From NCBI GenBank assembly GCA_934201705.1, contig CAKPXF010000001.1, positions 66,783 to 130,782 on the forward strand: 64,000 nt of DNA, given 5' to 3'. The DNA is from an uncultured Bacilli bacterium. GTDB lineage: Bacteria; Bacillota_I; Bacilli_A; RFN20; CAG-631. The notes under the pieces are model-generated. The model worked only from the letters and a program-made list of their open reading frames with translations. It had not been told where the DNA came from and made no database searches. Both the position numbers and the translations under genes were made by a program. This document shows, in pieces, positions 6,086 through 63,954 of the stretch (its first letter is position 1; every line of letters begins with the position of its first letter).

Positions 6086-9000
6086 TTAATTTTTCCTTTT
6101 TTTAAGGCATAATGCTCCAAGTAATGCAAGCATTCCGATAAGGCATGAAGCTTCACCTCTACAGCCCTTTTTATTTTCATTTGGTTTTTCTTCATTTGAA
6201 GAAGTATTATTTGTACTACTATTTATTATTTCACTTGAAGATGTGATTTCAGTAGGTGTGCTTGAAGGTTCTTCACTAGGTTTTTCACTAGGCTTTTCTT
6301 CACTATCTTTAATAACTTTATAAATTGCTAATTTTGCTTCATTTAAAACATTAGCATCCTTAGTTAATAATGATTTTTGCTCATCAGTTAAAGCATCATA
6401 AGCATTTTTAGCCATTTCATAAGCACTTTTAGCACTTTCAAGATTGTCTTTATTTACGTTAGTAATAACTTGCTCTAGTAATGCATCACATTCTTTAGCA
6501 ATTTGTTTATTTTTAATGTCATTTTTAACCTTGACGCCATCATAAGAAGTAACTCCTTCAATGTAGATGCCTTTAATTTCAAAGCCACCACTTCCTTGAT
6601 TAATCGGATCTGAAACGAATGCTTCAAGGCCAAAGTAACCACAATCCTTACTATCTTTATTTGTAGAAATATATTCTCTAACAAATGTTTTTCCACTTTC
6701 TCCACCAGTTAAAGAAATTATTGCTTTATAGCCAACGTATTCATCGTTTTCATATAAATCAATAGTTTTAATAGAAATCTTTGTATAGTTTTTATAAATA
6801 TGATGAATGTCAAGTTGACTACCTTCTTCATCAGTTGGATAATCTAATATAGTTTTAAAATCAGCAAGAGGATTACCAGCTGCATCTTTAGTCATAGGAA
6901 TAACACCATTAACACATTCAACGATTTTAAAGCCATCGCCTCCTACTAATAAAACCATATAGTTTCCTTCTTGTAGCCAGCTACCTTTATTATGATGCTT
7001 AGCAATTGAATCTGCTCTAACAATAAAGTAGAAATTACCCCACGTACATTTTTGTAGATTTGAATCAATAATCCATGTAAATTCCATTTCATTTAAAGCT
7101 TTAGCAGTTGTATAAATACTTAAATCATTTGTTGATGAATTAACAATTAAAGAGCCATCTTTAGCTTGCATATCATCAAAGCCATCTAATTCGTAAATGT
7201 TATCCTTAGTCTGTGCAAAATTATAGCCATCAATTTTATTTGCATCTTCATATTCTTTTAAAGCAATTAAGGATTGCTCTAATAAATCAGCATTTGTTAC
7301 TTCGCTCTTTTCAATATCATATAATTCATCATAAGCTTTTTTAGCGGCTAAAATAGTCCTTGAATCTTTAGCATAATTAGTAATAGGTAAATTGATTTTA
7401 GCAATTAAAGCAACTACTGGGTCAGCATATGATAAAATATCTTCATATTTATCTAATGCTTTTTTGCATTCTTCTAATTTTTTGACTAATGTAGCATCGC
7501 ATTGTGATTTTTGTTCATCAGTTAATAATTCATATTTAGCACTAGCATCTTTTACTATTTTTGCTTGCCTTTCATAATTAACTCTATTATAAGCTTCATT
7601 AACTTCGTTTAATTTTTCTAAAGCTAACTTAGCTAATACCACTACATCAACATTTTCTAAATCAGATTTAATTTGATTATATTTATTAATGTCTTCACTA
7701 GAAACAAGTTCTTTTTGAGTATCTGTTAAATTATTATAAAGATTTGTAACATTGTTAAATTGATTTACAATATCTGAATAGTTATCAGCTGTAATTGTAT
7801 CATAATTAATTTTAGTTAATTCATCTATAAATTTATTAGCATAATATAAATCCTTTGAATAAGATGATTTACTATCAGCTACATATAAACTAATTGTGTT
7901 ATTAGTTAAATCAGGTGTATTGCCACTAGCTGTAAGTGCTAAACCAGCTGATTGATTTCCCCACAAAGATTTATATGGTAATAATATTTCATTGCTATAT
8001 GTTTCACCTTTTCTTGAAGCATAATATGAAATATTTAATTTAACACCATCAGTTACATCTAAAACATCAAATGTTACCTCTGTTTTTTGTTGACAAATAA
8101 ACCAAAATGAATTTCCATCAACACCAGGAATTAAAAATGTTTGATCTGTGCCAATAACATTAATGTTACCTTCATCACATACTATTAATTGGTAACCAGC
8201 ATGAGTAATACATAAAGCGATAAAGCTTCCGTTAGCATTGCTTGGAACGATTGTATTAGTAGTATTATTAAATGTCCATAATACTTTTGAAAATTCCTCA
8301 GCTTGACCCTTAACCATCAATACAACTCCACCCCATGAAGAATCTAAAGCTGTATAGTCAAGAACGAATTTAACTGTAGCATTACCATTAAATTCTTTTG
8401 TAATGCCAAGTGATTGAATACCAGTTTGACTCATTGTACCATCATTAATTGCTGCATTGTATAGAGTTTGCCAATAATTAGCATCGCTATGATATTTATT
8501 AGCAACATCAATTAAGCTATAGCTTAACACTTCTAAATTAATTTCAACTTCGTTATTTTCTTTAACATTAACGATTACTTTATAAGTACCATTAACATTA
8601 ATCTTTATTTTTCCATCATTTCCTTTTTCGTAGAATGATCCTTGATATTTCACTTCATTAGTTGAATTATCAACAAATGATTTAACAGCATCGTATCCAT
8701 GAGCTGATTTTTCATCATCTACAAGGAAGTTAACATTAAATTCTTGACCTTCTAAAAGATTTAATGAACTTGCAAATGAATGTGCAAATCCTTCATTTGC
8801 TTCAATTTTTTCAAATGTATAGCCATTATCTAATTTACATTCATATTTAGTTGTAGGAATAATAGGTACATCTACTGCTTCAATATTGTTAACCTTCATT
8901 GTAACTTCGATATTATGATTTTCATTAATAGTACCACTACCAGTTCTACCATAAGTTACATGCTTTGTATTTCCTTTTAAAGAAGCATTAGTTGAAGTAT

Positions 9001-10333
9001 AAGAGAAAGTTGCATCGATTTCATGACCCCATGGTGATTTTGTGATTAATTCAAAATCAAATTTAACACCACTTGCTGTTTCAGTCATTTGAGTAACGAT
9101 TCTGAATGCTTTATCAAAACAGTAATAATGAAATTGATTCATGATATTTGGATCATCAGGAAAATTATTAGGAACAATGTTAGTTCCTTCTGTATAGCCT
9201 AAAGATTTATCAAATATGACAGTTCCATTAGCATCTCTTTCAATTACAGCAAAGCCCTTTGTCCAACCCCAAACTAAAGAAACAGAATTATTAGCTTGTA
9301 CCATACCAGTTGTAGCATCAATGCCAAATGTAGTATCATTAGCAAATGTTAAATATTCCCATTTCCAATCAGCCATAGGACTTAATTCAAGGCTTTGATT
9401 AGATGTAAAGTCAACCTTAGAGTTTCCACCAATTTCCTTTGTTTGATAATTAAATGTTGGTCCAGTTGCTTTCATTACATTTCCAGTAAATATAGCATTA
9501 TCACATGCACTCCAATTATCTTTACTAGCTGAATAAATAGTAGGATCAACAATACCCATTGTCATAATGATATTATGATTTTCATCAATAGTACCACTAC
9601 CAGTTCTACCATAAGTTACATGCTTGTCACCTTTTAATTGTTCATTTGTAGAAGTATAAGAAAAAGTAATATCTATATCATGACCCCAAGGCGATTTAGT
9701 AATTAATTCAAAATCAAATTTAACACCATTTGTTATTTCAGTCATTTGGGTAATAATTCTAGATGACTTATTAAAGCAATAAAAATGTGATTCATTTAAT
9801 ATATTAGCTTGATCAGCTCCATACTTTTCAAGCCCTGTTACTTTAACACCAGAATCATCTAAAGATAAGGCTTTGTCAAATACAGCCTTTCCTGTTGAAT
9901 CCTTTTCAATTACAGAAAATCCTTTTCCCCAACCCCAAACTAAAGAAAGTGAATTGCTAGCTGTTGTAATACCAGTTCCAGCATCAATTCCTTTTTCATT
10001 ACTAGTTGAAAATGTTAAATATTCCCATTTCCAATCAGCCATAGGACTTAATTCTAAAGTTTGATCAACTAAAAAATCGACTTTAGAATTACCACTAATT
10101 TTTTGTGTTTGCCAGTTAAAGTTTCCACTTACAGCTTTCATAGAATTTTCAGTAAAAGTTGCGTTAGTTGAATCAGTCCAATTTGATTGATTGTTAGTGA
10201 TAATATCACCACTAACCAAAGCATCTTCTGCAAAAATCTCTACATTAGAATCATTAATTACAAATGATGAAATTGTGATTAATGGAGCTGTTACTACTAA
10301 AGCTAATGTTAATAATTTTTTACCTTTTTTCAT
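6086..10333 (-). CDS. Large (1415 aa) secreted cell-surface protein with a tandemly duplicated ~270-aa domain, coiled-coil regions and the same Cys-containing C-terminal anchor (GCRG, TM, KKRKN)
   Basis: Signal peptide present. Two near-identical internal repeats are visible at protein level (SGNFNWQTQKISGNSKVDF...KSPWGHDID vs TGPTFNYQTKEIGGNSKVDF...KSPWGHEID) and at DNA level. The C-terminus has an EKPSEKPSEEPSS linker, GCRG, a hydrophobic helix and a basic tail. Confidence 0.75.
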   Translation of the reverse strand: MKKGKKLLTLALVVTAPLITISSFVINDSNVEIFAEDALVSGDIITNNQSNWTDSTNATFTENSMKAVSGNFNWQTQKISGNSKVDFLVDQTLELSPMADWKWEYLTFSTSNEKGIDAGTGITTASNSLSLVWGWGKGFSVIEKDSTGKAVFDKALSLDDSGVKVTGLEKYGADQANILNESHFYCFNKSSRIITQMTEITNGVKFDFELITKSPWGHDIDITFSYTSTNEQLKGDKHVTYGRTGSGTIDENHNIIMTMGIVDPTIYSASKDNWSACDNAIFTGNVMKATGPTFNYQTKEIGGNSKVDFTSNQSLELSPMADWKWEYLTFANDTTFGIDATTGMVQANNSVSLVWGWTKGFAVIERDANGTVIFDKSLGYTEGTNIVPNNFPDDPNIMNQFHYYCFDKAFRIVTQMTETASGVKFDFELITKSPWGHEIDATFSYTSTNASLKGNTKHVTYGRTGSGTINENHNIEVTMKVNNIEAVDVPIIPTTKYECKLDNGYTFEKIEANEGFAHSFASSLNLLEGQEFNVNFLVDDEKSAHGYDAVKSFVDNSTNEVKYQGSFYEKGNDGKIKINVNGTYKVIVNVKENNEVEINLEVLSYSLIDVANKYHSDANYWQTLYNAAINDGTMSQTGIQSLGITKEFNGNATVKFVLDYTALDSSWGGVVLMVKGQAEEFSKVLWTFNNTTNTIVPSNANGSFIALCITHAGYQLIVCDEGNINVIGTDQTFLIPGVDGNSFWFICQQKTEVTFDVLDVTDGVKLNISYYASRKGETYSNEILLPYKSLWGNQSAGLALTASGNTPDLTNNTISLYVADSKSSYSKDLYYANKFIDELTKINYDTITADNYSDIVNQFNNVTNLYNNLTDTQKELVSSEDINKYNQIKSDLENVDVVVLAKLALEKLNEVNEAYNRVNYERQAKIVKDASAKYELLTDEQKSQCDATLVKKLEECKKALDKYEDILSYADPVVALIAKINLPITNYAKDSRTILAAKKAYDELYDIEKSEVTNADLLEQSLIALKEYEDANKIDGYNFAQTKDNIYELDGFDDMQAKDGSLIVNSSTNDLSIYTTAKALNEMEFTWIIDSNLQKCTWGNFYFIVRADSIAKHHNKGSWLQEGNYMVLLVGGDGFKIVECVNGVIPMTKDAAGNPLADFKTILDYPTDEEGSQLDIHHIYKNYTKISIKTIDLYENDEYVGYKAIISLTGGESGKTFVREYISTNKDSKDCGYFGLEAFVSDPINQGSGGFEIKGIYIEGVTSYDGVKVKNDIKNKQIAKECDALLEQVITNVNKDNLESAKSAYEMAKNAYDALTDEQKSLLTKDANVLNEAKLAIYKVIKDSEEKPSEKPSEEPSSTPTEITSSSEIINSSTNNTSSNEEKPNENKKGCRGEASCLIGMLALLGALCLKKRKN

Positions 10334-20990: not shown

Positions 20991-22964
20991 TTAATCGTAA
21001 AACAAAACAATAGTTTTATAAGTTGGAATAGTAGTAGAAGAATCTAAATAATATCCAACTTCAACATTGATTAATTTATTATTTATTGTTTTACTGTAAA
21101 CATAAGAAATGTTTTCATCTTTATCTACTATTTCTTCTTTAGCAAATGAATTCATTTCTAAATAGCTCTCAATGTTTTTAGTGGCAATTTTTGCTGATTT
21201 TTCATCTAAAACATCTGTTTCAATTTGCAATAAGCAATTTCCTTCTTTACCTTTTAATTGGCGATAACTTACCTTAGATAAAACCTCACTAGATATAGTT
21301 CTATTTGAGAAGAAATCAAGTTTATCAAAGATTTCATCCATAAAGCCATATGAAGCTAAGCCTAATCTTTTTTCAATAAGTTGATTGAATTTTTCTTTAT
21401 CTAAATAAGAATCAAAACTACCTTGATAATAAAATACACCAAATGAAACTGTTTGATTGCTTTCATCGTACATAAGTGAAAATAGCCAAACATTATCTTT
21501 TGATAAATATTGATTAATACTAAGACCATAATAGTCATCAAGCTTTAAAGTTAAGGTATAAGAAAGCTTTTCCATTTTTTCTTTAAAGTCAGGCAAAGGA
21601 TTATTTAGTGCAGTTCCAATAATTGTACAATTAGAATCACTTTTGCTATCAGTATTTAAATAATAATTATATGTATTATCTATATTTGGAAAATCTTCAA
21701 TTGTAAAACTATTTTCATTATCTAATTTTATGTAATTCATAAAATCAACTAAATGAGTTAATTGATTAACGCCTTTTAATGAGTCTTTATTATTTGTTAG
21801 TTCATCAATTTTAGTATTATTAATATCATAAACCTTTAAATAAATATCATTACTTATCATATAAGTGTGAGTTTCTTTATCAAGTGTTTTTTTAGAATAT
21901 AAATTTAAGCTAGAAAGATCATCATTAGTAAAGCCAATTTTATTAAAGAAAGTTGAAAATGTTAAAGCACTAAAGCCATAATAAGTATCATTAGAAAACA
22001 TTGTGCTATTTAATTCTTCATTATCCACCTTAGGTCTAAAATCAAATGAAGGGATTTCATATAATGATGAGGCTACATACCTTTTACCTGTTTCTATATC
22101 AACATAATAATCGCTATTAACAGAATGCTTAATAACACCATCTTCTTTATAAAAAGAAGCACTTAAAATACCATCATCATTTATAAAAGCAACATTATTT
22201 GTTGTAGGATTTTCATCATTTATATCAATATATTCATGATTTGCATTAAAAACGCCATTAGAATATGCGGTATCTGTGTATTTAGATACATAGATAAAAT
22301 CATTAAATTTGAATTCTAATGTATAGTTAGTAAGGCTAGTTAATAAATTAATTTGATCCTTTAAAGGCTTAAATGTATCGTTAACATTAACTATAAAACT
22401 AATAGAGTTAACATCAACATTAGTGTTTAAATATGATATAGCAATTTCTACATCTCCAGCTTTAGTAAATTGTTTGTTTTCATAATTAGTTGAATAGTTT
22501 TTAGTTTCTCCTTTTGAGGAAAATGCACCATCTACATATGTTAATAAATTAATTTTTAATCCTGTGCTATCAAAATAGTCGCCAGTATTATAGCTGACTT
22601 TATTTGGAAGAGATGCTATTTCAAGCTCATAAGAGGTGTAGCCCTTATATGGGAAAACACTAACTTCTATTTGGGCACTTTCAGTTTCATTACTAGCAAA
22701 AACTGTTATTTTTCCTGATTTTAGAACGGTTAATGAACCTTTATTAGAAATTAAGGCAATTGATTCATCACTAACGCTAAATTTAACATTATCTTTATTA
22801 GTCGTATACTGATAAGTATTACCAACATAGGCGATGCTTTCGCCACTTATGTTTAACTTTTCACTTTCAGATAAAGATGCATCGTTATTACAAGAAATCA
22901 AATTAATATTTATAGATGAAAACAAAAGTAACGAAAAGATAATTAAACTTTTATTTTTTCTCAT
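20991..22964 (-). CDS. Lipoprotein with an N-terminal BIG2 (bacterial Ig-like) domain, unknown function
   Basis: 657 aa. Signal peptide with lipobox (NINLISCNN). A BIG2-like segment follows (ISGESIAYVGNTYQYT...ITVFASNETESAQIEVSVF). Confidence 0.65.
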   Translation of the reverse strand: MRKNKSLIIFSLLLFSSININLISCNNDASLSESEKLNISGESIAYVGNTYQYTTNKDNVKFSVSDESIALISNKGSLTVLKSGKITVFASNETESAQIEVSVFPYKGYTSYELEIASLPNKVSYNTGDYFDSTGLKINLLTYVDGAFSSKGETKNYSTNYENKQFTKAGDVEIAISYLNTNVDVNSISFIVNVNDTFKPLKDQINLLTSLTNYTLEFKFNDFIYVSKYTDTAYSNGVFNANHEYIDINDENPTTNNVAFINDDGILSASFYKEDGVIKHSVNSDYYVDIETGKRYVASSLYEIPSFDFRPKVDNEELNSTMFSNDTYYGFSALTFSTFFNKIGFTNDDLSSLNLYSKKTLDKETHTYMISNDIYLKVYDINNTKIDELTNNKDSLKGVNQLTHLVDFMNYIKLDNENSFTIEDFPNIDNTYNYYLNTDSKSDSNCTIIGTALNNPLPDFKEKMEKLSYTLTLKLDDYYGLSINQYLSKDNVWLFSLMYDESNQTVSFGVFYYQGSFDSYLDKEKFNQLIEKRLGLASYGFMDEIFDKLDFFSNRTISSEVLSKVSYRQLKGKEGNCLLQIETDVLDEKSAKIATKNIESYLEMNSFAKEEIVDKDENISYVYSKTINNKLINVEVGYYLDSSTTIPTYKTIVLFYD

Positions 22965-24086: not shown

Positions 24087-26972
24087 TTACCAATCCCATC
24101 CTGGATCAATTTCTCCACTACCTGATGATGTTTTTTCAAGTAGTTTTAAAGTTTCTCCATTATAAACAATATTAATTCCTTCAATTGTTCCATCACTCTT
24201 TAAAGCACCAACCATAGAAGCATTTAATTTACTAACTAATGCAGCGTTATCACAAACAATATTAGTTAATGTTAATGTATTACCTGAAACAACAATATCA
24301 AAAGTAAATGTTCCAATAATAGTTGTTTCGCCATAATAATAAGGTTCGTTTTTAATAACAAGAGTTCCTTTTAAAGTGTTTTCAGAAACATCTGTAAATG
24401 TTAATGTATAAGTAGTATCATCATAAGTTGACCAGTCTGTTACAGACTTAGAGTATGTTTTATCTTTAATAGATTCATAAATAGAAGGAACAGCTTTTAT
24501 TTCAATAGTTTTTGTAACAAACTTGCTTGAATCGCCTTCAGCAGTAGCCTTTATTACAATACTACCAGCTGTATTTCCAGCCTTTAATAAGAATTTACTA
24601 CCACTCTTTTCAATAGTGCATCCTAAATTATCACCTTCAATAGTATAAGTAACATTGCTATTTTCCACAGATCCACTTGGATTAACAATAGCCTTTATTT
24701 CACTACTATCATTACAATACATTGAATCAGGAGCTTTTGTTAATTCAACATTTTCAATAGCAGCATAGCTAACAACAAATGTTAATGTCTTACTAACATT
24801 TTTACTAGCAAATGTAACATTGTATTCTCCTTTCTTTGGCGCAGAAATTGTAAATCCATATTTTACACTACCATAAACATTAATGCCACTATCCTTAGTA
24901 GTAGTTATTTCATCAATACCAGCTAGTGCAGTTGAAGGAACAATATCCTTTAATTCAACAAATACATCATTTGAAACAATAATATTATATTTTCCTTCAC
25001 TAGTAGGAGTTATTTTTGATCCTTCTTTATCTGATTTACTAGTAAATACATTCAAATCAAATGCAGAGTAATAATAATTATCGAAGTTAAAGTATTTATT
25101 ATTATCAGCTTCCTTTTGACCATATTCAATTGAAGCAGTATATTCAGTGATTTGGTCTTTAGCAGTTGAAACTAAATTTCCATCACTATCAATTTCATGA
25201 TCAACACGCTTATAAGAAAGTGCGTCAACACCACCATCGCTTGTAAATGAAATTGTAGATGTTACATCTGTTTTATATTTAGTATTACGGAATCCAGTAG
25301 TAATACATGTTGCAGTAAATTTATAGCCATTAGCATCCTTTAAGCCAACTAATGAACTTCTAATTTCTTTTTCATCACCATCAACAGAAAATACTCCATC
25401 AATAAGTTTCTTACTATAGAAATCAGCTAATCCAGTATATTTATCACCGATTCCTGTATTTTCTAAAAATTCTGCAGAGCCAAATGTATTTAAATATCCT
25501 TGATATTCTACTTTATTATCTTCAGTTATTTCTGTGTTATTAATAACACTAACATCTTGTCCGTTTTTGTTAAGTGTATAGAAGACATTATCAACAATGC
25601 CTTGATATAAATAGCTAACAGCGCCATCTTTATCAGTTACCTTTGTAACAGTATATCCATCAGAATAGCTTTCAAATGAATATTCATTATTAATAGAAGA
25701 ATCATCATCATCTATATGATAAGTAAATGTAACCTTTTTAGTATTATTCAATTCATATTCTTTAGCAGTGGCTAATTTATCTTTTAAAGTATTAGATAGC
25801 ATTGTACCACTAGAAATTGGTTTTACATTAATTTCAGCCTTAATAGAATCATTATCCTTTAAGCTTACATAGATAGTGTTTGTATTTTCACTAGCATTTA
25901 ATATTGTTAATTTTCCATCACTTGTAATTTCAATATCCTTATCGCTAGAGCCTTTTTCCCAAACAAGTTCTGCAAAGCTTCCTTCTGGCTCTAATGTGGT
26001 AGTTAAATCGTATGTTTCTCCTTCTTCAACGAAATAATTAGTACCCCATCTAGTTTGATTTTCAATCCAAGATTCTGGAATGTTAATAGATATAGCAGTA
26101 GCTTTAAAGACAAAGCTTACTTCAATTGATACAAGGCCTTCTTTGACAGGAAATGAATAGTTAGTATCACTATTTTCATCTTTTGCAATTTCACTACCAT
26201 TTACTTTAACATATCTAGTAATATATTTATCATTAGCAGTTGCAGTAATAGTTAATGTAGTATTTTCATCAACACATGAACCATTTTGAACAACTGTATC
26301 ACCATTTTTAATAACTACAGTTCCATTAGTAAATGTTTCATCTAAATCAATTAAGCCTTTATTAGGATTAATCAAACTAAAAGTAGCACTTAAGAAGTTC
26401 TTGCCTTCAATTACTTTAAATGTGAAGTTTCCTTCATTATCTTTATTTATTGTAGTATTGTCATTTAGTTTAATAGATTCAATTTGATAGGCCTTATTAA
26501 CTGGAGTTGCTTCTACCACTACTTCAGTATCAATTGGCAACCTTTTATTGTCTTTATTAATAGGAGTTCCGTCTTTAAGCTTAACAGTGATTGTTCCATT
26601 ATTAACCTTAGAAGAAATTACTTCAACAGTACCATATTTACTAATAGGTGTTGATTCAATAAAAGTAACCTTAACAACATTGCTTCCTTCTTTAACTTTA
26701 AAGGTATTAGAATCCAATTTTGTGTCATTTAAATAGTAAGAGTCAATCTCATATCCTTCATTTGGACTAGCAATAATTGTAACAATTGTATCAATTTTTA
26801 CATTGCCTAATTTTGAAGCACTAACACTTCCGTTTTCAATATCATTTGCAACAGTTACAGCACCATATTTTATTGTTTCAACATTGTTAGATTCACAGCC
26901 ACTAATACTTAATGAAACAATGGAAGAAAACAATAAAAATGATGATATTAAAATGCTTTTTGTTTTTCTCAT
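24087..26972 (-). CDS. Large lipoprotein (961 aa) with four or more tandem ~85-aa Ig-like repeats, unknown function
   Basis: Lipobox LSISGCESNN. Repeated domain units are visible (YGAVTVANDIENGSV...VKVTFIE, YGTVEVISSKVNNGTI...SATFSLI, etc.). It is first in a three-gene lipoprotein operon. Confidence 0.65.
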   Translation of the reverse strand: MRKTKSILISSFLLFSSIVSLSISGCESNNVETIKYGAVTVANDIENGSVSASKLGNVKIDTIVTIIASPNEGYEIDSYYLNDTKLDSNTFKVKEGSNVVKVTFIESTPISKYGTVEVISSKVNNGTITVKLKDGTPINKDNKRLPIDTEVVVEATPVNKAYQIESIKLNDNTTINKDNEGNFTFKVIEGKNFLSATFSLINPNKGLIDLDETFTNGTVVIKNGDTVVQNGSCVDENTTLTITATANDKYITRYVKVNGSEIAKDENSDTNYSFPVKEGLVSIEVSFVFKATAISINIPESWIENQTRWGTNYFVEEGETYDLTTTLEPEGSFAELVWEKGSSDKDIEITSDGKLTILNASENTNTIYVSLKDNDSIKAEINVKPISSGTMLSNTLKDKLATAKEYELNNTKKVTFTYHIDDDDSSINNEYSFESYSDGYTVTKVTDKDGAVSYLYQGIVDNVFYTLNKNGQDVSVINNTEITEDNKVEYQGYLNTFGSAEFLENTGIGDKYTGLADFYSKKLIDGVFSVDGDEKEIRSSLVGLKDANGYKFTATCITTGFRNTKYKTDVTSTISFTSDGGVDALSYKRVDHEIDSDGNLVSTAKDQITEYTASIEYGQKEADNNKYFNFDNYYYSAFDLNVFTSKSDKEGSKITPTSEGKYNIIVSNDVFVELKDIVPSTALAGIDEITTTKDSGINVYGSVKYGFTISAPKKGEYNVTFASKNVSKTLTFVVSYAAIENVELTKAPDSMYCNDSSEIKAIVNPSGSVENSNVTYTIEGDNLGCTIEKSGSKFLLKAGNTAGSIVIKATAEGDSSKFVTKTIEIKAVPSIYESIKDKTYSKSVTDWSTYDDTTYTLTFTDVSENTLKGTLVIKNEPYYYGETTIIGTFTFDIVVSGNTLTLTNIVCDNAALVSKLNASMVGALKSDGTIEGINIVYNGETLKLLEKTSSGSGEIDPGWDW

Positions 26973-56794: not shown

Positions 56795-56841
56795 AAAGCA
56801 CATTGTGCTTTTTTTCTTTTTAAAAGAGTTTAATAACATTA

Positions 56842-56874
56842 AAAGGCTGTGAATATTAGCACTCACAACCTTTT
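56842..56874. repeat. Degenerate copy of the repeated terminator hairpin plus 3'-UTR remnant of an immunity-gene paralogue
   Basis: aaaaggctgtgaatattagcactcacaaccttttaagtaacataagctaaagattaatt aligns to the 3' flank of the paralogues at 58123..58175 and 60653..60712, with mismatches. Confidence 0.6.
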
Positions 56875-56948
56875 AAGTAACATAAGCTAAAGATTAATTA
56901 CAACTATTTGAAATATATCATTTTCTATTACAATTTTTTTGGATAAGT

Positions 56949-57881
56949 TTATATTATTTTATCAAGAGTTTGTTTAATTTCTACTTCAAGTTTTTTAATT
57001 TCTTGTTTTAAACATTCAAAATCGTTTGCACTACTAACAATGAGATGCCTATCCATGATTTGTTCAAATTCAACAAATTTTTTTGATATAAATGAATATT
57101 TAGAAGTAATTTGATTACAAATTCTATTTTCATCAGTTAAATAAAATGCAATATACATTCCATATTTTCTAATCAGACTACATATAAAAGCACAATAATC
57201 TTCATTTACAAGGTTAATACTATCATTAACTACTAAGTCATAATATTCAATATACTGGTGCCCACAGGCAGATGATTTGCCAAAATTTTCAATATTAAAT
57301 GTGTGATTTGTAATATTATATTCGATTATTCCACAACTTTGGTTTTCTAAAGCACCTTGAGAAAATACTAAATGTAAAATATTCTTATGAATAGCAATTT
57401 TTAATAAAATAATATCCATAACAGGTAGATTTTTTAATAATAATAATTCTTTTGTTTTTATATTATAAATATATGATTTGTTTCTTTTTACTTTATAAAA
57501 TAAAATATACTCATTATAATTATAATAATCAAAATTTTCTGAGATATTGCTTTGATTTATTATTTCACATTTTAAATAATCTACCACAACTATTTTTTTA
57601 TTCTTAAATGCAAATAATAAATTATCATAAACTACAGCTGAGTAAACTGCACATATTTTAAAAAAGTTAACATGATTATCTTTTATAATTTCAATACCTT
57701 TTTCATAATCAAATACTATTAAGCAGTTATTACAATAAATTGGTTTTATAACATCATCAATAATGTCTTTAAAATTTGTATCATAATTTAAAATCAATTG
57801 ATTGTTACCATATAATGAAAATCTTTTATTACACACCTCATATGCCAATACTGTTTTGTCGACATTAATAAAATATTTCAT
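56949..57881 (-). CDS. Hypothetical protein (310 aa), putative immunity protein of the cassette array
   Basis: The ORF lies immediately downstream of a truncated toxin stub (58020..58100) in the same orientation. No recognisable motifs. Confidence 0.45.
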   Translation of the reverse strand: MKYFINVDKTVLAYEVCNKRFSLYGNNQLILNYDTNFKDIIDDVIKPIYCNNCLIVFDYEKGIEIIKDNHVNFFKICAVYSAVVYDNLLFAFKNKKIVVVDYLKCEIINQSNISENFDYYNYNEYILFYKVKRNKSYIYNIKTKELLLLKNLPVMDIILLKIAIHKNILHLVFSQGALENQSCGIIEYNITNHTFNIENFGKSSACGHQYIEYYDLVVNDSINLVNEDYCAFICSLIRKYGMYIAFYLTDENRICNQITSKYSFISKKFVEFEQIMDRHLIVSSANDFECLKQEIKKLEVEIKQTLDKII

Positions 57882-58019
57882 ATTGTTTTCCCCTCCATAC
57901 TTATTATAAACTATATATCCATGTCATAAATTAATTTCATAATTTTTTTTGCATGTTCCCAAGCATTTTTATCATTTACTTGCCCTGAATCTAAAATTTT
58001 TTAACATGATTTTATCTAA

Positions 58020-58100
58020 TGTACAACTAATAAACTACTACCAACTACATACGTATGATAACATAAAATATTAAATGTTGTAAATGCTACTTCATTTACT
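58020..58100 (-). other. Truncated toxin constant-segment stub (encodes ...EVAFTTFNILCYHTYVVGSSLLVVH*), copy 1 of 4
   Basis: ~75 bp nearly identical to 59516..59585 and 60556..60635. There is no start codon and an in-frame stop comes right after LLVVH. Confidence 0.6.
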
Positions 58101-58128
58101 ATTATAGAGATTAAAGATAAAAGGCTGT

Positions 58129-58154
58129 GAATATTAGCACTCACAGCCTTTTAA
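58129..58154. repeat. Repeated terminator hairpin (ggctgtga-atattagcac-tcacagcc), copy 2
   Basis: Perfect 8-bp inverted repeat flanked by A/T tracts, ~10 nt downstream of the stop of the 331-aa gene. Confidence 0.65.
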
Positions 58155-58164
58155 GCAACATGCG

Positions 58165-59160
58165 CTAAAGATTAATTTCTATGATATCTTCATCATCTAC
58201 ATCATGATATCCCATAAATGCTCTTGTATTTATAAAAGTGTTATTAGCATTAGTATTTTTTAGTTCCATATAGGTATCCTGTAATATCTTTTGAATATAA
58301 GCATAAGCTTCAAAGAATTCCATTTTATTAATATTATCAAAATCTAATCTTATAGTGTTTTTATCAAAGCAATATGTTTCTTCATCAAACCATTTATTAA
58401 TGTAACCTCCAAGACTTAAGCTATATCCTTTTTCTTCTTCAATGAAGGTATAGAATATATATTTACATTTTGATTTTACAATTTTTGAATTTGATAAGTG
58501 TTCAAACCATGCTTTTATTAGTTCTTTTTCATTTTTATAGTTGTTTTCAAAATATGTAATGCAATATTCTAATTTATCATCTTCTTTTTTTAATTCTTTT
58601 ATACAAGCACCAGTAAATTTTTGCTTTTTAAATGCTTTTACTAAATCATCGCTTATACAAAGCCTTAAATCAAATAATTCTTTGTCAAAAGGAATAGATT
58701 TATCTGTATATATTTTCCTCATAGTAGCAATATGCTTATCATTTTCATCAAAATTGTATGTTGTATAAGCAATGCCACTATTAAATGATCTAATTGGGAT
58801 AACCTCTTTTGGTAACATTAAATAATAGTCACCATCGATTTTAATATTTTTATTGCGTACACTGAGTTCAACCTTTTTAAATAACAAGTTAGATGCTAAA
58901 TTATTACTATTTAAATAATCATATACTCGTTTAGTTATTAGGAAAAACGGATGAAGAAGCGAATACATAAAATCTTGCATGCTTTTTTCCTCATTATATG
59001 AAATATCACTTGTTACAGCTTCTTTAACATTTTCATAAATCCACATAATAGTTTCTTTATCATATCTATAATGATTTTTATCAGTTCCCACTTTAAAACC
59101 TTCAACGTCGTAATAAAAATTATAGTCATCGCCAAAATCTGTACTTTTTATTATTTTCAT
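58165..59160 (-). CDS. Putative immunity protein (331 aa), paralogue B; >95% identical to 60700..61689
   Basis: Strong RBS (AAAGGAG). It lies immediately downstream of the HNH-like toxin C-terminal cassette. The near-identical duplicate is 2.5 kb away. Confidence 0.6.
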   Translation of the reverse strand: MKIIKSTDFGDDYNFYYDVEGFKVGTDKNHYRYDKETIMWIYENVKEAVTSDISYNEEKSMQDFMYSLLHPFFLITKRVYDYLNSNNLASNLLFKKVELSVRNKNIKIDGDYYLMLPKEVIPIRSFNSGIAYTTYNFDENDKHIATMRKIYTDKSIPFDKELFDLRLCISDDLVKAFKKQKFTGACIKELKKEDDKLEYCITYFENNYKNEKELIKAWFEHLSNSKIVKSKCKYIFYTFIEEEKGYSLSLGGYINKWFDEETYCFDKNTIRLDFDNINKMEFFEAYAYIQKILQDTYMELKNTNANNTFINTRAFMGYHDVDDEDIIEINL

Positions 59161-59182
59161 ATGTTAACTTAGAATCTCCTTT

Positions 59183-59584
59183 CTATTTTATAAATAGTTC
59201 AAGTATTGCATCACATGCTTTTTCACCATTTTTTCTGAGACATTCATAATTATCCTTTACTAAATTCCCCAGTTTTTCCATTTCTTTTGTAAACTCTCCA
59301 AAATCATCAGTTTTATCTAATGCAGATTTAACACATTTATCAATCGTATCATGATATGCATCTGTATGACGACCTTTGTGTTGTGGGATTTCTACTTTAT
59401 TCCATCTATCATTTAAGTTGGCTTCAGGGAATTTATCTTTTGTTTTATTTCCAATTTCATTTCCTTTTTTCCCTTTATTACTTACTGTATGGTGGCATTC
59501 GTTATGTACAACTAATAATTCATTACCAACTACATACGTATGATAACATAAAACATTAAATGTTGTAAATGCTACTTCCTTTGC
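59183..59584 (-). other. Orphan polymorphic-toxin C-terminal cassette with no start codon: constant segment EVAFTTFNVLCYHTYVVGNELLVV plus an HNH/EndoVII-like nuclease domain
   Basis: Hand translation of the minus strand gives AKEVAFTTFNVLCYHTYVVGNELLVVHNECHHTVSNKGKKGNEIGNKTKDKFPEANLNDRWNKVEIPQHKGRHTDAYHDTIDKCVKSALDKTDDFGEFTKEMEKLGNLVKDNYECLRKNGEKACDAILELFIK*. The open frame begins right after a stop with no ATG/GTG/TTG start. The HH...N...H...H spacing fits the LHH/AHH/Tox-HNH-EHHH toxin domains. Confidence 0.5.
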
Positions 59585-59654
59585 TTAATTAAATTCATTG
59601 GTTATTTTAATTAAATATCATATTTTTTATAAATTTTGAGCAAAAACGGATATA

Positions 59655-59692
59655 ACAATTTTACATTATTACATCCGTTTAAATAAATCTAT
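59655..59692 (-). terminator. Hairpin terminator downstream of the 214-aa gene
   Basis: aaacggat-ataacaattttacattattac-atccgttt. Confidence 0.45.
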
Positions 59693-59716
59693 TGATTGCT
59701 TAATAGCATTTATATG

Positions 59717-60361
59717 CTATAAGTCTATTTTTTTTGAGATTAATTTTTTTACAAAAATAATACAGTATTTAGCAATTATAATTTTTTTATAATTGTCAAT
59801 TTTATTTACCATATATTCTTTCTTTAATACTCTTAATTCTTTGAGTAAATCATTCAAATCATTGTATTTATAAATATCAATATCAAAGAATTTTTTACAT
59901 GATTTTTTAAATTCCTTAATGTTATAGATACCATCTTTTCCAACAGTGAAATAGATATTTGGCTTTATTTTATGTACAATATTAGCTGCATTATCAACAA
60001 TATCAGTATACATATAATATCTTTTTGCCAATATATTATCATAGCATTCAATGTTTAATGAAATATCTTTTATATTGTTTTTATTATCTTTTAAAATACA
60101 TTCGATTTTCCTTAAAATATCTTCAGTAAATAAGTACATTATAGCATCAGAACATGAAAAACCACAAAATAAAAAATCTGAAAACATTATGTTCAAAGAA
60201 TATGTTTCTTCTTCCTCATATAAAACTTCTATTAATATATCATCATTTCTCTTGAAATTATTAAAATACGAAAGAGTTTTCTCTTTGTTTTTTTCGTTAA
60301 AGAATTTTATAGAGTAAGCAATATAAAATCTAGGCATTTCTTTTAGTTGTTCATAATTCAT
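59717..60361 (-). CDS. Hypothetical protein (214 aa), putative immunity protein
   Basis: The ORF follows the toxin stub at 60373..60635 in the same orientation. Confidence 0.45.
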   Translation of the reverse strand: MNYEQLKEMPRFYIAYSIKFFNEKNKEKTLSYFNNFKRNDDILIEVLYEEEETYSLNIMFSDFLFCGFSCSDAIMYLFTEDILRKIECILKDNKNNIKDISLNIECYDNILAKRYYMYTDIVDNAANIVHKIKPNIYFTVGKDGIYNIKEFKKSCKKFFDIDIYKYNDLNDLLKELRVLKKEYMVNKIDNYKKIIIAKYCIIFVKKLISKKIDL

Positions 60362-60372
60362 ATCATTTTCTC

Positions 60373-60635
60373 CTAATTATATCTTTTAAAGTATCTTTGA
60401 TTACTTTTTTCTTCAATTATTAGTGGCATCTTAATATATATTATAATTAGACATATTTTATCTATATTTCCTAAAGATTTATCTTTTAAAATATCAGTTT
60501 TAAATTCTTTGCTAATTTGATTTTTATCAACTTTTAGGTTTACGTAAATACTATATACAACTAATAAACTACTGCTAATTACATACGTATGATAACATAA
60601 AATATTAAATGTTGTAAATGCTACTTCATTTACTA
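60373..60635 (-). other. Toxin constant segment plus a divergent short C-terminal tail (track ORF of 107 aa), copy 3 of 4
   Basis: It encodes ...NEVAFTTFNILCYHTYVISSSLLVVYSIYVNLKVDKNQ... The first ~25 codons match the other copies, then it diverges. Confidence 0.5.
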
Positions 60636-60652
60636 TTATATAGATTAAAGAT

Positions 60653-60690
60653 AAAAGACTGTGAGTGTTAGTATTCACAGCCCTTTTAAG
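60653..60690. repeat. Repeated terminator hairpin, copy 3 (slightly diverged: gactgtga...tcacagcc)
   Basis: Same position relative to the paralogue A stop as copy 2 has to paralogue B. Confidence 0.6.
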
Positions 60691-60699
60691 CAACATGCG

Positions 60700-61689
60700 C
60701 TAAAGATTAATTTCTATGATATCTTCATCATCTACGTCATGATATCCCATAAATGCTCTTGTATTTATAAAAGTGTTATTAGCATTAGTATTTTTTAGTT
60801 CCATATAGGTATCCTGTAATATCTTTTGAATATAAGCATAAGCTTCAAAGAATTCCATTTTATTAATATTATCAAAATCTAATCTTATAGTGTTTTTATC
60901 AAAGCAATATGTTTCTTCATCAAACCATTTATTAATGTAACCTCCAAGACTTAAGCTATATCCTTTTTCTTCTTCAATGAAGGTATAGAATATATATTTA
61001 CATTTTGATTTTACAATTTTTGAATTTGATAAGTGTTCAAACCATGCTTTTATTAGTTCTTTTTCATTTTTATAGTTGTTTTCAAAATATGTAATGCAAT
61101 ATTCTAATTTATCATCTTCTTTTTTTAATTCTTCTATACAAGCACCAGTAAATTTTTGCTTTTTAAATGATTTTACTAAATCATCACTTATACAAAGCCT
61201 TAAATTAAATAATTCTTTGTCAAAAGGAATAGATTCATCTGTATATATTTTTTCCATATCAGCGATATGCTTATCATTTTCATCAAAATCGTATGTTGTA
61301 TAAGCAATACCACTATTAAAAGATCTAATTGGTATAACCTCTTTTGGTAGCATTAAATAATAGTCACCATTGATTTTAATATTTTTATTTCGTACACTGG
61401 GATTAACCTTTTTAAATAATAAGTTAGATGCTAAATTATTACTATTTAAATAATCATATACTCGTTTAGTTACTAGGAAAAATGAATGAAGAAGCGAATA
61501 CATAAAATCTTGCATGCTTTTTTTCTCATTATATGAAATATCACTTGTTACAGCTTCTTTAGCATTTTCATAAATCCACATAATAGTTTCTTTATCATAT
61601 CTATAATGATTTTTATCAGTTCCCACTTTAAAGCCTTCAACGTCGTAATAATGATTATCGCCAAAATAAGTATATCCTATTAATTTCAT
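60700..61689 (-). CDS. Putative immunity protein (329 aa), paralogue A; >95% identical to 58165..59160 except for the N-terminal ~15 residues
   Basis: Near-identical protein and DNA, e.g. one mismatch in the first 90 nt from the stop codon. It is preceded only by a badly decayed toxin stub. Confidence 0.6.
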   Translation of the reverse strand: MKLIGYTYFGDNHYYDVEGFKVGTDKNHYRYDKETIMWIYENAKEAVTSDISYNEKKSMQDFMYSLLHSFFLVTKRVYDYLNSNNLASNLLFKKVNPSVRNKNIKINGDYYLMLPKEVIPIRSFNSGIAYTTYDFDENDKHIADMEKIYTDESIPFDKELFNLRLCISDDLVKSFKKQKFTGACIEELKKEDDKLEYCITYFENNYKNEKELIKAWFEHLSNSKIVKSKCKYIFYTFIEEEKGYSLSLGGYINKWFDEETYCFDKNTIRLDFDNINKMEFFEAYAYIQKILQDTYMELKNTNANNTFINTRAFMGYHDVDDEDIIEINL

Positions 61690-61725
61690 ATGCTATTTGT
61701 AATCTCCTTTTAATAACAATTCATT

Positions 61726-61800
61726 TGTCAACTACATATGTATGATAACATAAAATATCAAACACTGTAAACGTTGATTTATTCGCATAATTCGTCAAGT
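61726..61800 (-). other. Most degraded copy of the toxin constant segment (encodes ...FTVFDILCYHTYVVDK*), copy 4 of 4
   Basis: caactacatatgtatgataacataaaatatcaaacactgtaaacg aligns to the other three copies with ~20% mismatch. Confidence 0.45.
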
Positions 61801-62019
61801 TCAACTAATAATACTTTAACAAATCAATTGGATATTTTAATCAAATCATATTTTATTAATTCACAACTATCTTATATAAATACATTATGATTAAGCATAT
61901 AGATATTTAGTATGAATATAGTAATGGTTTTATATTTACTCTAACTATAATTTTAATAAAAGATCCCCAATTTAGCAAATGGGGATTGATTTTTAAAATA
62001 TTATTAAGCTTTTGAATGA

Positions 62020-62389: not shown

Positions 62390-63109
62390 TTATTCCTCAT
62401 CGAAGGTTTCTTTAAATCTACCCATAAATGATATTGGCTCATTCTTAACATATAAATGAGAAATATCACCTAAGCATTGGGCTCTAAAATGAGCAATTCC
62501 TTTTTCCTTTTCTTCAGTGTAGATAATACTAACAGATGTTGGAGCAAAGGCAATATGTTGAGCAATTGCTACAAATGGTATATTAAATAAACGAGATAGT
62601 AAAACACTTTCAAGCCCTAAATGAGCAAAGATAACAATTGTATCTTTATTTGGCTTAACAGCTTTATAATATAAGCCATTTCTTGTATAGCCATGCTTTT
62701 TTAATAAATTATCAAATGATGATATAACATAGTTATAGCCTTCATGAACATTTGAATCAACATTAAATAAAGGATTATCTAAATATTTACTATTATCATA
62801 GAAATCACTTTTTTCCTCACACATATATTTATCATCAAAATCCCATGGGATTCTATCATTATGTGTTTTATAATCTTTTATTTTATAAGGAAATTCTTGA
62901 AGCCAATCACAAGTTTCATAAGGCATGTTTGTTGCTTTTAAATAAGGATCAGCAGTAAATTTTGCCCTATTTAATGGAGAAACATAAACATAATCAATTT
63001 TTTCTTTGATTAATCTATCTTTTAATAATTCAGCTTCCTTAAAGCCTTTTTCTGTTAAGGTATTATCCTTATAATTTGGTTCTCCATGCCTTATAATAAT
63101 TATACGCAT
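62390..63109 (-). CDS. Histidine phosphatase family protein (phosphoglycerate mutase-like)
   Basis: N-terminal RHG motif (IIIIRHGEPNY). 239 aa. Confidence 0.65.
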   Translation of the reverse strand: MRIIIIRHGEPNYKDNTLTEKGFKEAELLKDRLIKEKIDYVYVSPLNRAKFTADPYLKATNMPYETCDWLQEFPYKIKDYKTHNDRIPWDFDDKYMCEEKSDFYDNSKYLDNPLFNVDSNVHEGYNYVISSFDNLLKKHGYTRNGLYYKAVKPNKDTIVIFAHLGLESVLLSRLFNIPFVAIAQHIAFAPTSVSIIYTEEKEKGIAHFRAQCLGDISHLYVKNEPISFMGRFKETFDEE

Positions 63110-63954
63110 TAAAGATCAACCACCATTCCATCATAAGATACATCAACATTATACTTGCTAGCTACTTCTTTCATTTCATCATAAGTAGCATTACCATTAT
63201 GAGAAAAATGATTAGCGATTATTTTAGTATGCTCATCAATAATATTGTGTTTTTTCATTTCATTAATTACCTCTAGGAAAATATCAAATGATAAGTGACC
63301 ATCACGCCAATTATTTAATAAGCAAGCAGTACAATCAAGGCTTACCATATCTAAAGGCTTTTTAATTGCTTTTAAATATTCCCAAGCTTTTTCTTTAAAG
63401 AATCCTGTATCATGGGCATAAAGAATTTGAATGTCATTTTGTTTTATTAAATAAATAAAAGGTTCTGACAAAGGATCATGATTAGCCTCTAAGGCGACTA
63501 TTTCATAATTTAATACCTTAAATGGTACATATGGCTTAACAATTACTGGTTGAACAAGCTTTTCAGTAATACCTTCAGCATTGATTGCTTCAACAACCAT
63601 TTTATTTACAAGAGTGGAACCATAAATATACAAAGACTCTTTTTCAGCAAATCTTGTGTAGCCACTACTTCTATAAATTAATTCATTTGGATAAAAATGA
63701 TCGCTATGAGCATGAGTTATTAGAACATGATGAATTCTATCAAGACGTACATCATAATTAAACATATGATAATATGACTCAGGTCCAAAATCAATTAATA
63801 GCTCATCGTTAATAATAGCTTGGCTTCTAGTTCTAATATCCTTACCTTTATTCTTCCAAGCCTTTAAGCATGTTTTACATTGGCAATATAATGCCGGAAT
63901 CCCTTCAGCTGCTGCTGTTCCTAAATATTGAAATTTCATTTTTATTTCCTCCAT
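63109..63954 (-). CDS. MBL-fold metallo-hydrolase
   Basis: Metallo-beta-lactamase HxHxDH motif (HVLITHAHSDHF). 281 aa. Confidence 0.7.
   Translation of the reverse strand: MEEIKMKFQYLGTAAAEGIPALYCQCKTCLKAWKNKGKDIRTRSQAIINDELLIDFGPESYYHMFNYDVRLDRIHHVLITHAHSDHFYPNELIYRSSGYTRFAEKESLYIYGSTLVNKMVVEAINAEGITEKLVQPVIVKPYVPFKVLNYEIVALEANHDPLSEPFIYLIKQNDIQILYAHDTGFFKEKAWEYLKAIKKPLDMVSLDCTACLLNNWRDGHLSFDIFLEVINEMKKHNIIDEHTKIIANHFSHNGNATYDEMKEVASKYNVDVSYDGMVVDL

Follow-up and report, generated by a model that had tools for sequence, protein, structure and literature searches.

The cassette array on the minus strand

The window considered here is a stretch of 64,000 nucleotides (64 kb) from contig CAKPXF010000001.1 of an uncultured Bacilli bacterium. 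Between 56.9 and 61.9 kb it carries, on the minus strand, a succession of short direct repeats and genes, which we interpret with high confidence as an array of four orphan toxin-tip/immunity cassettes from an RHS-repeat polymorphic toxin; a perfect 10-bp palindrome contained in the repeat would be incidental. The region is very AT-rich (GC content about 23–25%), its genes are located on the minus strand, and the upstream neighbours of the array are housekeeping-type genes. An initial annotation, made from the sequence of the window, had described a constant segment followed by variable parts in the manner of a cassette array, and this description was borne out by related contigs, where the same tips occur both as silent orphans and fused to full-length genes.

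The constant segment (about 65–87 nt) is present in four direct copies, at 58019–58105 (copy 1), 59504–59590 (copy 2), 60553–60640 (copy 3) and 61724–61792 (copy 4), as obtained from the repeat families D2/D3 and by alignment; the four copies reported in the initial annotation are real. Read along the minus strand, the array consists of copy 4, a gene for 329 amino acids (aa), a hairpin, copy 3, a degenerate tip, a 214-aa gene, copy 2, an AHH-type nuclease tip, a 331-aa gene, a second hairpin, copy 1 and a 310-aa gene. The closest relative of the window is L017, a 2.4-kb gut contig with 95% identity to window positions 57744–59590.

Copy 4 is part of a pseudogene remnant of the main toxin gene, namely of the 3' end of its HINT-coding part, from which the toxin part has been deleted (61724–61892, minus strand; tblastn and nucleotide alignment to L017). 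The remnant, about 170 nt long, reads NHNVFI(stop)D..SCELIKYDLIKISN(stop)FVKVLLVELDELCE(stop)INVYSV(frameshift)DILCYHTYVV, with a non-palindromic CATACATATG on the coding strand at 61735–61744. Compared with the main gene of L017, to which it is 79% identical over 191 nt, it has three stops in frame, lacks 12 nt and is shifted in frame by 1 nt, and about 330 nt coding for the AHH tip are missing. In comparison with L017, this deletion (61716–61730) appears to join two GAATTATT strings, one in the NELL codons of the constant part and the other in the ELF codons of the toxin end, which suggests that microhomology mediated the loss and that precisely the toxin domain was removed. Positions 61790–61822 had been considered as the remnant of a second "LLVVHNE" junction (D8); this was rejected, since the alignment to L017 showed the KVLSVEIEEL part of the HINT domain there.

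The remnant is followed by the intact 329-aa gene (60700–61689, minus strand), a candidate for the immunity protein against the AHH nuclease, whose orthologue is found directly after the HINT-AHH toxin gene in L017 and which belongs to no Pfam family. Its paralogue, the intact 331-aa gene (58165–59160, minus strand), is likewise a candidate for immunity against AHH; between the two units the DNA identity is about 94.6%. A terminator scan revealed a terminator-like hairpin after the 331-aa gene (58118–58153, minus strand; DNA fold −12.4 kcal/mol, z = −5.5), which is repeated at about 60653–60687 and at 56839–56876 (repeat families D7, D9). The last of these belongs to a stretch downstream of the 310-aa gene (56839–56899), 93% identical to 58118–58177, in which the final ~25 nt of the 329/331-aa gene (..INL and stop) occur for a third time, together with the terminator hairpin; this suggests that an older unit of this kind received the 310-aa cassette by insertion or recombined with it.

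Copy 3 (EVAFTTFNILCYHTYVISSSLLVVYS; 60553–60640, minus strand) contains the palindrome at 60582–60591, and its terminal His-Asn is mutated to Tyr-Ser. The variable part that follows (IYVNLKVDKNQISKEFKTDILKDK...; 60373–60552, minus strand) has no Pfam match and is probably a degenerate toxin tip of unknown type; the homologue P0059 is a nearly identical fragment, and there is a resemblance to the KCVKLDADKIKKEFKLDRSKF tips which follow VVHN in P0027 and P0028. An intact 214-aa gene (59717–60361, minus strand; no Pfam match) would be, by its position only, the candidate immunity gene of this cassette. Copy 2 (KEVAFTTFNVLCYHTYVVGNELLVVHN) is preceded by decayed further HINT coding sequence (together 59504–59630, minus strand), contains the palindrome at 59533–59542 and has no in-frame start; behind it lies an intact, start-less toxin tip with an AHH-type HNH/EndoVII nuclease domain (59183–59503, minus strand; Pfam PF14412). 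In copy 1 (EVAFTTFNILCYHTYVVGSSLLVVH and stop; 58019–58105, minus strand; palindrome at 58048–58057) a stop replaces Asn, and the toxin tip is absent. The intact 310-aa gene next to it (56949–57881, minus strand) is a further candidate for an immunity gene, and the toxin tip that goes with it is lost at this locus; its 5' part has 68% DNA identity to a gene located directly downstream of a full-length toxin in the contig L008.

The four cassettes comprise one intact AHH nuclease tip, one degenerate tip and two from which the tip was deleted, and the downstream gene is intact in each. Of the HINT coding sequence each cassette retains a short 3' piece, and the start codon is absent: no in-frame ATG, GTG or TTG was found in the constant segments, and stops occur 2–15 codons upstream. 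A tblastn search of the 64-kb window for a full-length toxin or for further copies of the constant segment found only the four copies. The locus belongs to a known kind, that of orphan toxin/immunity cassette arrays, and is in a decayed state in this uncultured gut lineage of Bacilli; because the main toxin gene is left there only as the ~170-nt remnant, the array is a relic or a putative immunity island rather than a complete locus.

Origin of the constant segment and the toxin tips

As judged from its homologues, the constant segment represents the last ~25 codons of a pretoxin HINT (PT-HINT) domain (PF07591), with the ending ...N(I/V)LCYHTYVVGxxLLVVHN. Copies 1 and 2 read CYHTYVVGxxLLVVH(N), which corresponds to the C-terminal HINT blocks (...H-T/N-[YF]...V-H-N) preceding a toxin domain. 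A copy closer to the ancestral state is present in L001, a metagenome-assembled genome (MAG) of an uncultured Bacilli bacterium, which reads ...HIEELSEEINVYNLNVLCYHTYVVGNGLLVVHN and continues directly with ECHH.... The L001 fragment matched PF07591 at positions 104–136 of 137 with 17.0 bits (E = 0.007), which is below the gathering score of 27.7, and Intein_splicing at positions 125–155 of 155, both matches being at the end of the profile; a score below the threshold is to be expected, since the fragment comprises 25–33 residues of a domain of 137 positions.

A profile search with the constant segment plus the AHH part over 1.84 billion proteins showed the same residues at the end of a complete PT-HINT domain in P0011 (106.8 bits), P0023, P0038, P0047 and P0080, and likewise in P0045 and P0078, which are RHS-repeat proteins; the stretch also ends complete PT-HINT domains in P0035, L017 and L022. 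Alignment of 46 homologues showed that the motif ...VYN[FL].V...HTY[YFV]V......VHN is general for this domain and that unrelated toxin tips start directly after VHN. In the literature the HINT domain is described as immediately preceding the toxin domain, and recombination of cassettes at the 3' tip as involving the immunity gene as well (PMC3482391). A protein search with a 46-aa query from L001 yielded one trivial match.

The repeats could also be viewed as a non-coding intergenic element or a miniature mobile element, with an accidental CYHTYV frame. The copies have no start codon and two of them end in stop codons, which would fit such an element, as would the upstream half, which is frame-shifted with respect to the relatives: in copies 1–3 one nucleotide has been inserted about 20 nt 5' of the palindrome, which turns NVYNLN (as in L001 and L017) into AFTTFN, and the upstream part is therefore not under protein selection. 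Yet contigs that differ from each other by synonymous changes in the DNA encode a conserved peptide, full-length genes have this peptide joined without a break to a complete PT-HINT domain, and copy 2 runs in frame into an intact AHH domain. On the grounds of this continuity and of the synonymous DNA variation a non-coding element was excluded, and we give it practically no credence.

Full-length genes with the same peptide were found in other contigs. A degenerate DNA pattern for YHTYV.G....VHN detected 36 sites in 30 metagenome contigs, and a narrower pattern with fixed Leu-Cys-Tyr codons, applied to a genome collection, only one MAG contig, L001. Five sites (in L008, L019, L020, L022 and L030) are located at the end of open reading frames (ORFs) of about 2,300–2,400 codons, which terminate with the same peptide. 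The protein of L022 contains RHS repeats, a laminin-G-like domain, a glycine zipper, the PT-HINT domain (residues 2186–2312) and then a tip of 84 residues. In the ~2,400-aa RHS/PT-HINT toxins of L022, L008, L019 and L020 a glycine-zipper/hydrophobic stretch occurs just before the HINT domain, and there is no obvious signal peptide or Pfam trafficking domain at the start.

At many of the other sites a stop is located only 9 codons upstream ([DN]VYNLNVLG-YHTYVVG..LLVVHN), which marks them as orphans; these share a locus or contig with a main gene (L030; L004 with L020) or lie in tandem runs (L023, L027). One tip, QNCSNPNGRKGCKEHQ, is preceded by a long or full-length frame in L010, L026, L030 and L032, and occurs as an orphan in L004, L005, L009 and L027. 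A main gene accompanied by orphan tip/immunity modules with short homology is the textbook arrangement of polymorphic toxins (PMC4436062, PMC3482391).

The tip behind copy 2 scored 29.7 bits against PF14412 (gathering score 22.3). In frame, copy 2 reads KEVAFTTFNVLCYHTYVVGNELLVVHN and then ECHHTVSNKG...HKGRHTDAYH..., with the AHH part directly after VVHN. The motif of AHH nucleases is given as [AG]HH ... N ... H ... H ... Y (PMC3482391); the tip runs from ECHHTV... to NDRWNKVEIPQHKGRHTDAYH, and the motif opens with Cys in place of Ala or Gly, which is also the case in the homologues P0006, P0007, P0029 and P0067. The start-less tip is thus a predicted nuclease.

It is 86% identical to the tip of the main gene in L017, where the order is as follows: the main gene's C-terminal part, containing a glycine zipper and a complete HINT domain that ends in SEEINVYNLNVLCYHTYVVGNELLVVHN, the fused AHH tip, a 329-aa gene, a hairpin, copy 1 and the start of the 310-aa gene. 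When positions are numbered from the Tyr codon before His, so that the palindrome occupies +3 to +12, the main gene of L017 aligns with copy 2 from −45 to +299 at 94% identity and with copy 4 from −145 to +33 at 79%. Since the same AHH tip is fused in L017 to a complete HINT domain, the silent AHH cassette of the window is, by this comparison, a predicted counterpart of an expressed toxin tip in a related strain, with the 329/331-aa gene in the immunity position. An intact gene is found after every constant segment, and the same genes follow expressed toxins in L017 and, with the homologue of the window's 310-aa gene directly after the main toxin, in L008. A Pfam scan detected no known immunity family among the four downstream genes. 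When a near-identical full-length partner of the L017 HINT domain was searched for, only relatives of ≤75% identity were obtained.

The palindrome and the presumed exchange of cassettes

The palindrome CATACGTATG is exact at 58048, 59533 and 60582, and a one-base variant, CATATGTATG, is found at 61735; the initial annotation had likewise reported the palindrome in three copies and the variant in the fourth. Its placement within a coding constant region (...CYHTYV...) was sound in so far as the stretch is coding-like and all four copies translate so, the frame being on the minus strand; on the coding strand the palindrome is CAT-ACG-TAT-G, or His-Thr-Tyr-Val. The "decay" which had been seen in the fourth copy (CAT ACA TAT G) is, at this site, a synonymous change of Thr from ACG to ACA and implies no decay at the protein level there.

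Among 37 homologous sites in other contigs, Thr is encoded by ACA in 27, by ACT in 8 and by ACG in 2 (L001 and L017, which represent the window's own lineage). Thus 35 of the 37 sites carry CATACATATG or CATACTTATG, which are not palindromic, and still are part of arrays of main gene plus orphans; what has been conserved is the peptide and not the palindrome, and the architecture is the same in arrays that lack the latter. Within the window ACG is rare (2.1% of Thr codons). Perfect 10-bp palindromes are frequent there, with 154 in 64 kb (2.4 per kb), and 16.5% of 85-nt stretches hold one. The motif itself was matched five times, with 0.88 expected from shuffles; this excess is due to the copies being paralogues, so that the occurrences are not independent. 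As single-stranded DNA the palindrome has a hairpin potential of −0.8 kcal/mol (z = −0.57), no better than shuffles. The palindrome is a set of codons of a conserved HINT motif, which arises only through this lineage's rare Thr codon and has no role of its own; the ACG can be read as the product of one A→G transition which was passed on, or spread by homogenisation, in a single lineage.

The boundary between constant and variable sequence was mapped relative to the palindrome, as the initial annotation had advised. It had placed the palindrome directly at this boundary; copies 1–3, by contrast, remain alike for another 29–33 nt in the coding direction, through GTAGTTGG...TTATTAGTTGTACAT (VVGxxLLVVH), and their divergence begins only behind the His-Asn codons (58019, 59504 and 60553). 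Copy 4 remains alike for about 20–25 nt past the palindrome site, where the junction of the tip deletion is located. In the numbering given above, 43 further copies were compared with each reference, and in most of them homology to the main gene ceases on the 3' side at +41 to +44, where the His-Asn codons finish; exceptions are +47 to +56, where the tips begin alike, and +14 to +33 in a minority. The 5' end of homology of the orphans lies at −21 to −35. In the window and in the relatives alike the boundary thus follows directly on the His-Asn which ends the HINT domain, and the palindrome forms the middle of a tract of about 65–70 nt, with homology ending about 30 nt away on both sides.

These mappings bear on the proposal that the palindrome is the recognition site of a site-specific recombinase or nuclease, or a hotspot for template switching, which drives cassette exchange at the junction. 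In its favour are the exactness of the palindrome in three copies, its position within the longest run of identity between the copies, and the rare ACG, which is common to all close relatives (L001, L017, L034 and L035). Two of these, the short contigs L034 and L035, are mosaics in which an upstream flank of the copy-1/3 type (gene end plus hairpin) is joined to an AHH tip of the copy-2 type; diagnostic bases are few, and in L035 the switch of flank type falls into an identical stretch of 29 nt which includes the palindrome. In L034, though, the switch is upstream of it, and switches at different places would be the outcome of homologous recombination anywhere in the tract. The palindrome is not at the junction but about 30 nt away from it and from the opposite boundary of the homology tract, copy 4 differs at the site by a synonymous change, and the loci of the non-palindromic relatives have kept the same architecture of main gene and orphans. 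No recombinase gene is annotated within 10 kb of the array, the copies are direct repeats, which argues against an inversion system, and the palindrome is neither a better fold than its shuffles nor an uncommon feature in the window. A recombination signal, which had been the central suggestion of the initial annotation, is hence very improbable.

Another function at the DNA level was considered for the constant segment as a whole, which might be kept as an internal promoter for the orphan immunity genes downstream of a terminator hairpin. A promoter-like site (TTTACA, an 18-nt spacer and TATCAT with a preceding TG) overlaps with its −10 element the start of the palindrome; this sigma-70-like match of 10 out of 12 positions, with the extended −10 TG, is present on the coding strand of all four copies (58084→58055, 59569→59540, 60618→60589 and 61771→61742). 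Copies 1 and 3 stand directly after terminator-like hairpins, so that the genes behind them need some promoter, and all four downstream genes are intact though the toxin tips are mostly lost. Against this, promoter-like matches in the region number 52 compared to 54.8 in shuffles, as expected in DNA of 25% GC, and the codons V-Y-N-L-N-V-L-x-Y-H, whose conservation extends to full-length genes, fully account for the bases of the site. An internal promoter is therefore possible in terms of sequence but unsupported, and we consider it unlikely. Still less probable, and about on a par with the recombination signal, is the idea that the palindrome (which contains TACGTA) might be maintained as DNA, be it as a nicking, restriction or methylation site raising the frequency of crossover or as an internal promoter or transcription start for orphan immunity genes; if this were true, the clade would have added a DNA signal onto an otherwise purely homology-driven cassette system.

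The preferred interpretation is an incidental palindrome within orphan cassettes. By analogy with Rhs, contact-dependent growth inhibition (CDI) and Maf systems (PMC3482391, PMC4436062, PMC3967940), we infer the following course: in the full-length gene the HINT domain, directly before an exchangeable C-terminal toxin, would release the toxin by autoproteolysis; the constant tract of ~65–70 nt would be the substrate of ordinary homologous recombination, by which modules of tip plus immunity gene are displaced from, or re-attached to, the 3' end of the full-length gene; and retained immunity genes would protect the cell against the toxins of relatives. The constant segment would then plausibly be a homology tract for cassette exchange by a known mechanism. 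Circumstantial evidence for exchange is provided by the occurrence of the same tips as orphans and on main genes, by the mosaics L034 and L035, and by L017, whose arrangement differs from that of the window, to which L002 is collinear.

Several observations weigh against this interpretation. The window's own 31-aa constant peptides gave no PF07591 match by themselves, and the assignment depends on the homologues and on the copies of L001 and L017. An immunity role of the four downstream genes is deduced from position only (no Pfam family). The full-length toxin gene is absent from the 64-kb window and from the 10-kb flanks of the same locus in L002. L002 is the sole further assembly of this strain; it runs collinear to the window and shows 7 mismatches over 17 kb (99.96% identity). 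Finally, the rare ACG common to three window copies and to L001, L017, L034 and L035 was tentatively attributed to common descent or gene conversion.

Strain variation was followed by means of the 310-aa gene, and a rearrangement was seen neither in L002, which is collinear, nor in L003, which breaks off inside constant copy 1. L003, a contig of logan:ERR7738585 and an independent assembly of the same strain, ends at window position 58075; such a break within a repeat is typical of assembly collapse, and short-read assemblies therefore under-report arrays of this type and their rearrangements.

Pfam scans of the four downstream genes and of the neighbouring large ORFs revealed no toxin, secretion or recombinase families. 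Large ORFs on the minus strand are located at 6086–10333 (1,415 aa; no Pfam match at E ≤ 1e-5), 20991–22964 (657 aa, with Big_2) and 24087–26972 (961 aa, with an InlB B-repeat-like domain); they probably code for surface proteins unrelated to the cassette array. A gene of the metallo-beta-lactamase fold (63109–63954, minus strand) adjoins a histidine phosphatase gene (62390–63109); the identical gene in L002 has matches to Pfam PF12706 and PF23023 (Anti-Pycsar_Apyc1), and the product is probably an ordinary enzyme of this fold.

Comparison with known systems

With shufflons, invertase switches and integron attC sites there is a superficial likeness only, a short symmetric sequence in a repeat beside variable cassettes. 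Those systems differ from the present locus, which has no recombinase gene nearby and direct instead of inverted repeats, and where the symmetric site is neither conserved nor situated at the junction. As evidence for a recombination signal the palindrome is without importance, being a by-product of four codons.

A closer relationship exists with the pretoxin HINT domain PF07591 as described by Zhang et al. 2012 (PMC3482391): the constant peptide, in the form found in L001, aligns to the last ~33 positions of the profile and shares the C-terminal ...HTYxV....VHN. The copies in the window, unlike the domain, keep only the last ~25 of ~137 residues and are not functional HINT domains, and copies 1–3 have in addition the 1-nt insertion which gives AFTTFN in place of NVYNLN.

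The tandem start-less cassettes resemble the orphan rhs-CT/rhsI and cdiA-CT/cdiI modules (Poole et al. 2011, PMC3150448; Koskiniemi et al. 2014, PMC3967940; review PMC4436062). Orphan modules carry a region homologous to the main gene (PMC4436062), and here, too, the cassette starts with a short piece related to the 3' end of the main gene's conserved part, after which come a variable toxin tip and a small gene; in relatives the main genes code for RHS-repeat proteins, and the same tips occur in orphan and fused form. In proteobacterial Rhs proteins the boundary is marked by PxxxxDPxGL and in CdiA by VENN, whereas here it is the end of a pretoxin HINT domain (VVHN), and the host belongs to an uncultured, low-GC gut lineage of Bacilli. 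Unlike in Rhs and CDI loci, the main gene is reduced to a remnant of ~170 nt, and of the four toxin tips three have been lost or are degenerate. Uncultured low-GC gut Bacilli are documented by this locus as carriers of an RHS/pretoxin-HINT family of polymorphic toxins, and the retention of only ~24 codons (~70 nt) of homology in the orphan cassettes would show how short a tract of exchange can be.

Orphan immunity arrays, remaining after effectors were displaced or lost, have been described from Vibrio cholerae, in connection with the type VI secretion system (T6SS; PMC5361080), and from gut Bacteroidales (PMC12247911). As in these, presumed immunity genes are intact while toxins are deleted or silent, and there is no active toxin gene at the locus. 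A strain which has lost the toxin gene and most tips and possesses four presumed immunity genes would fit a retention as defence in dense gut communities. The arrays of Vibrio cholerae and Bacteroidales are T6SS-linked and belong to Gram-negative bacteria, whereas the cassettes described here stem from an RHS/PT-HINT toxin of Bacilli, with a protective role that is presumed.

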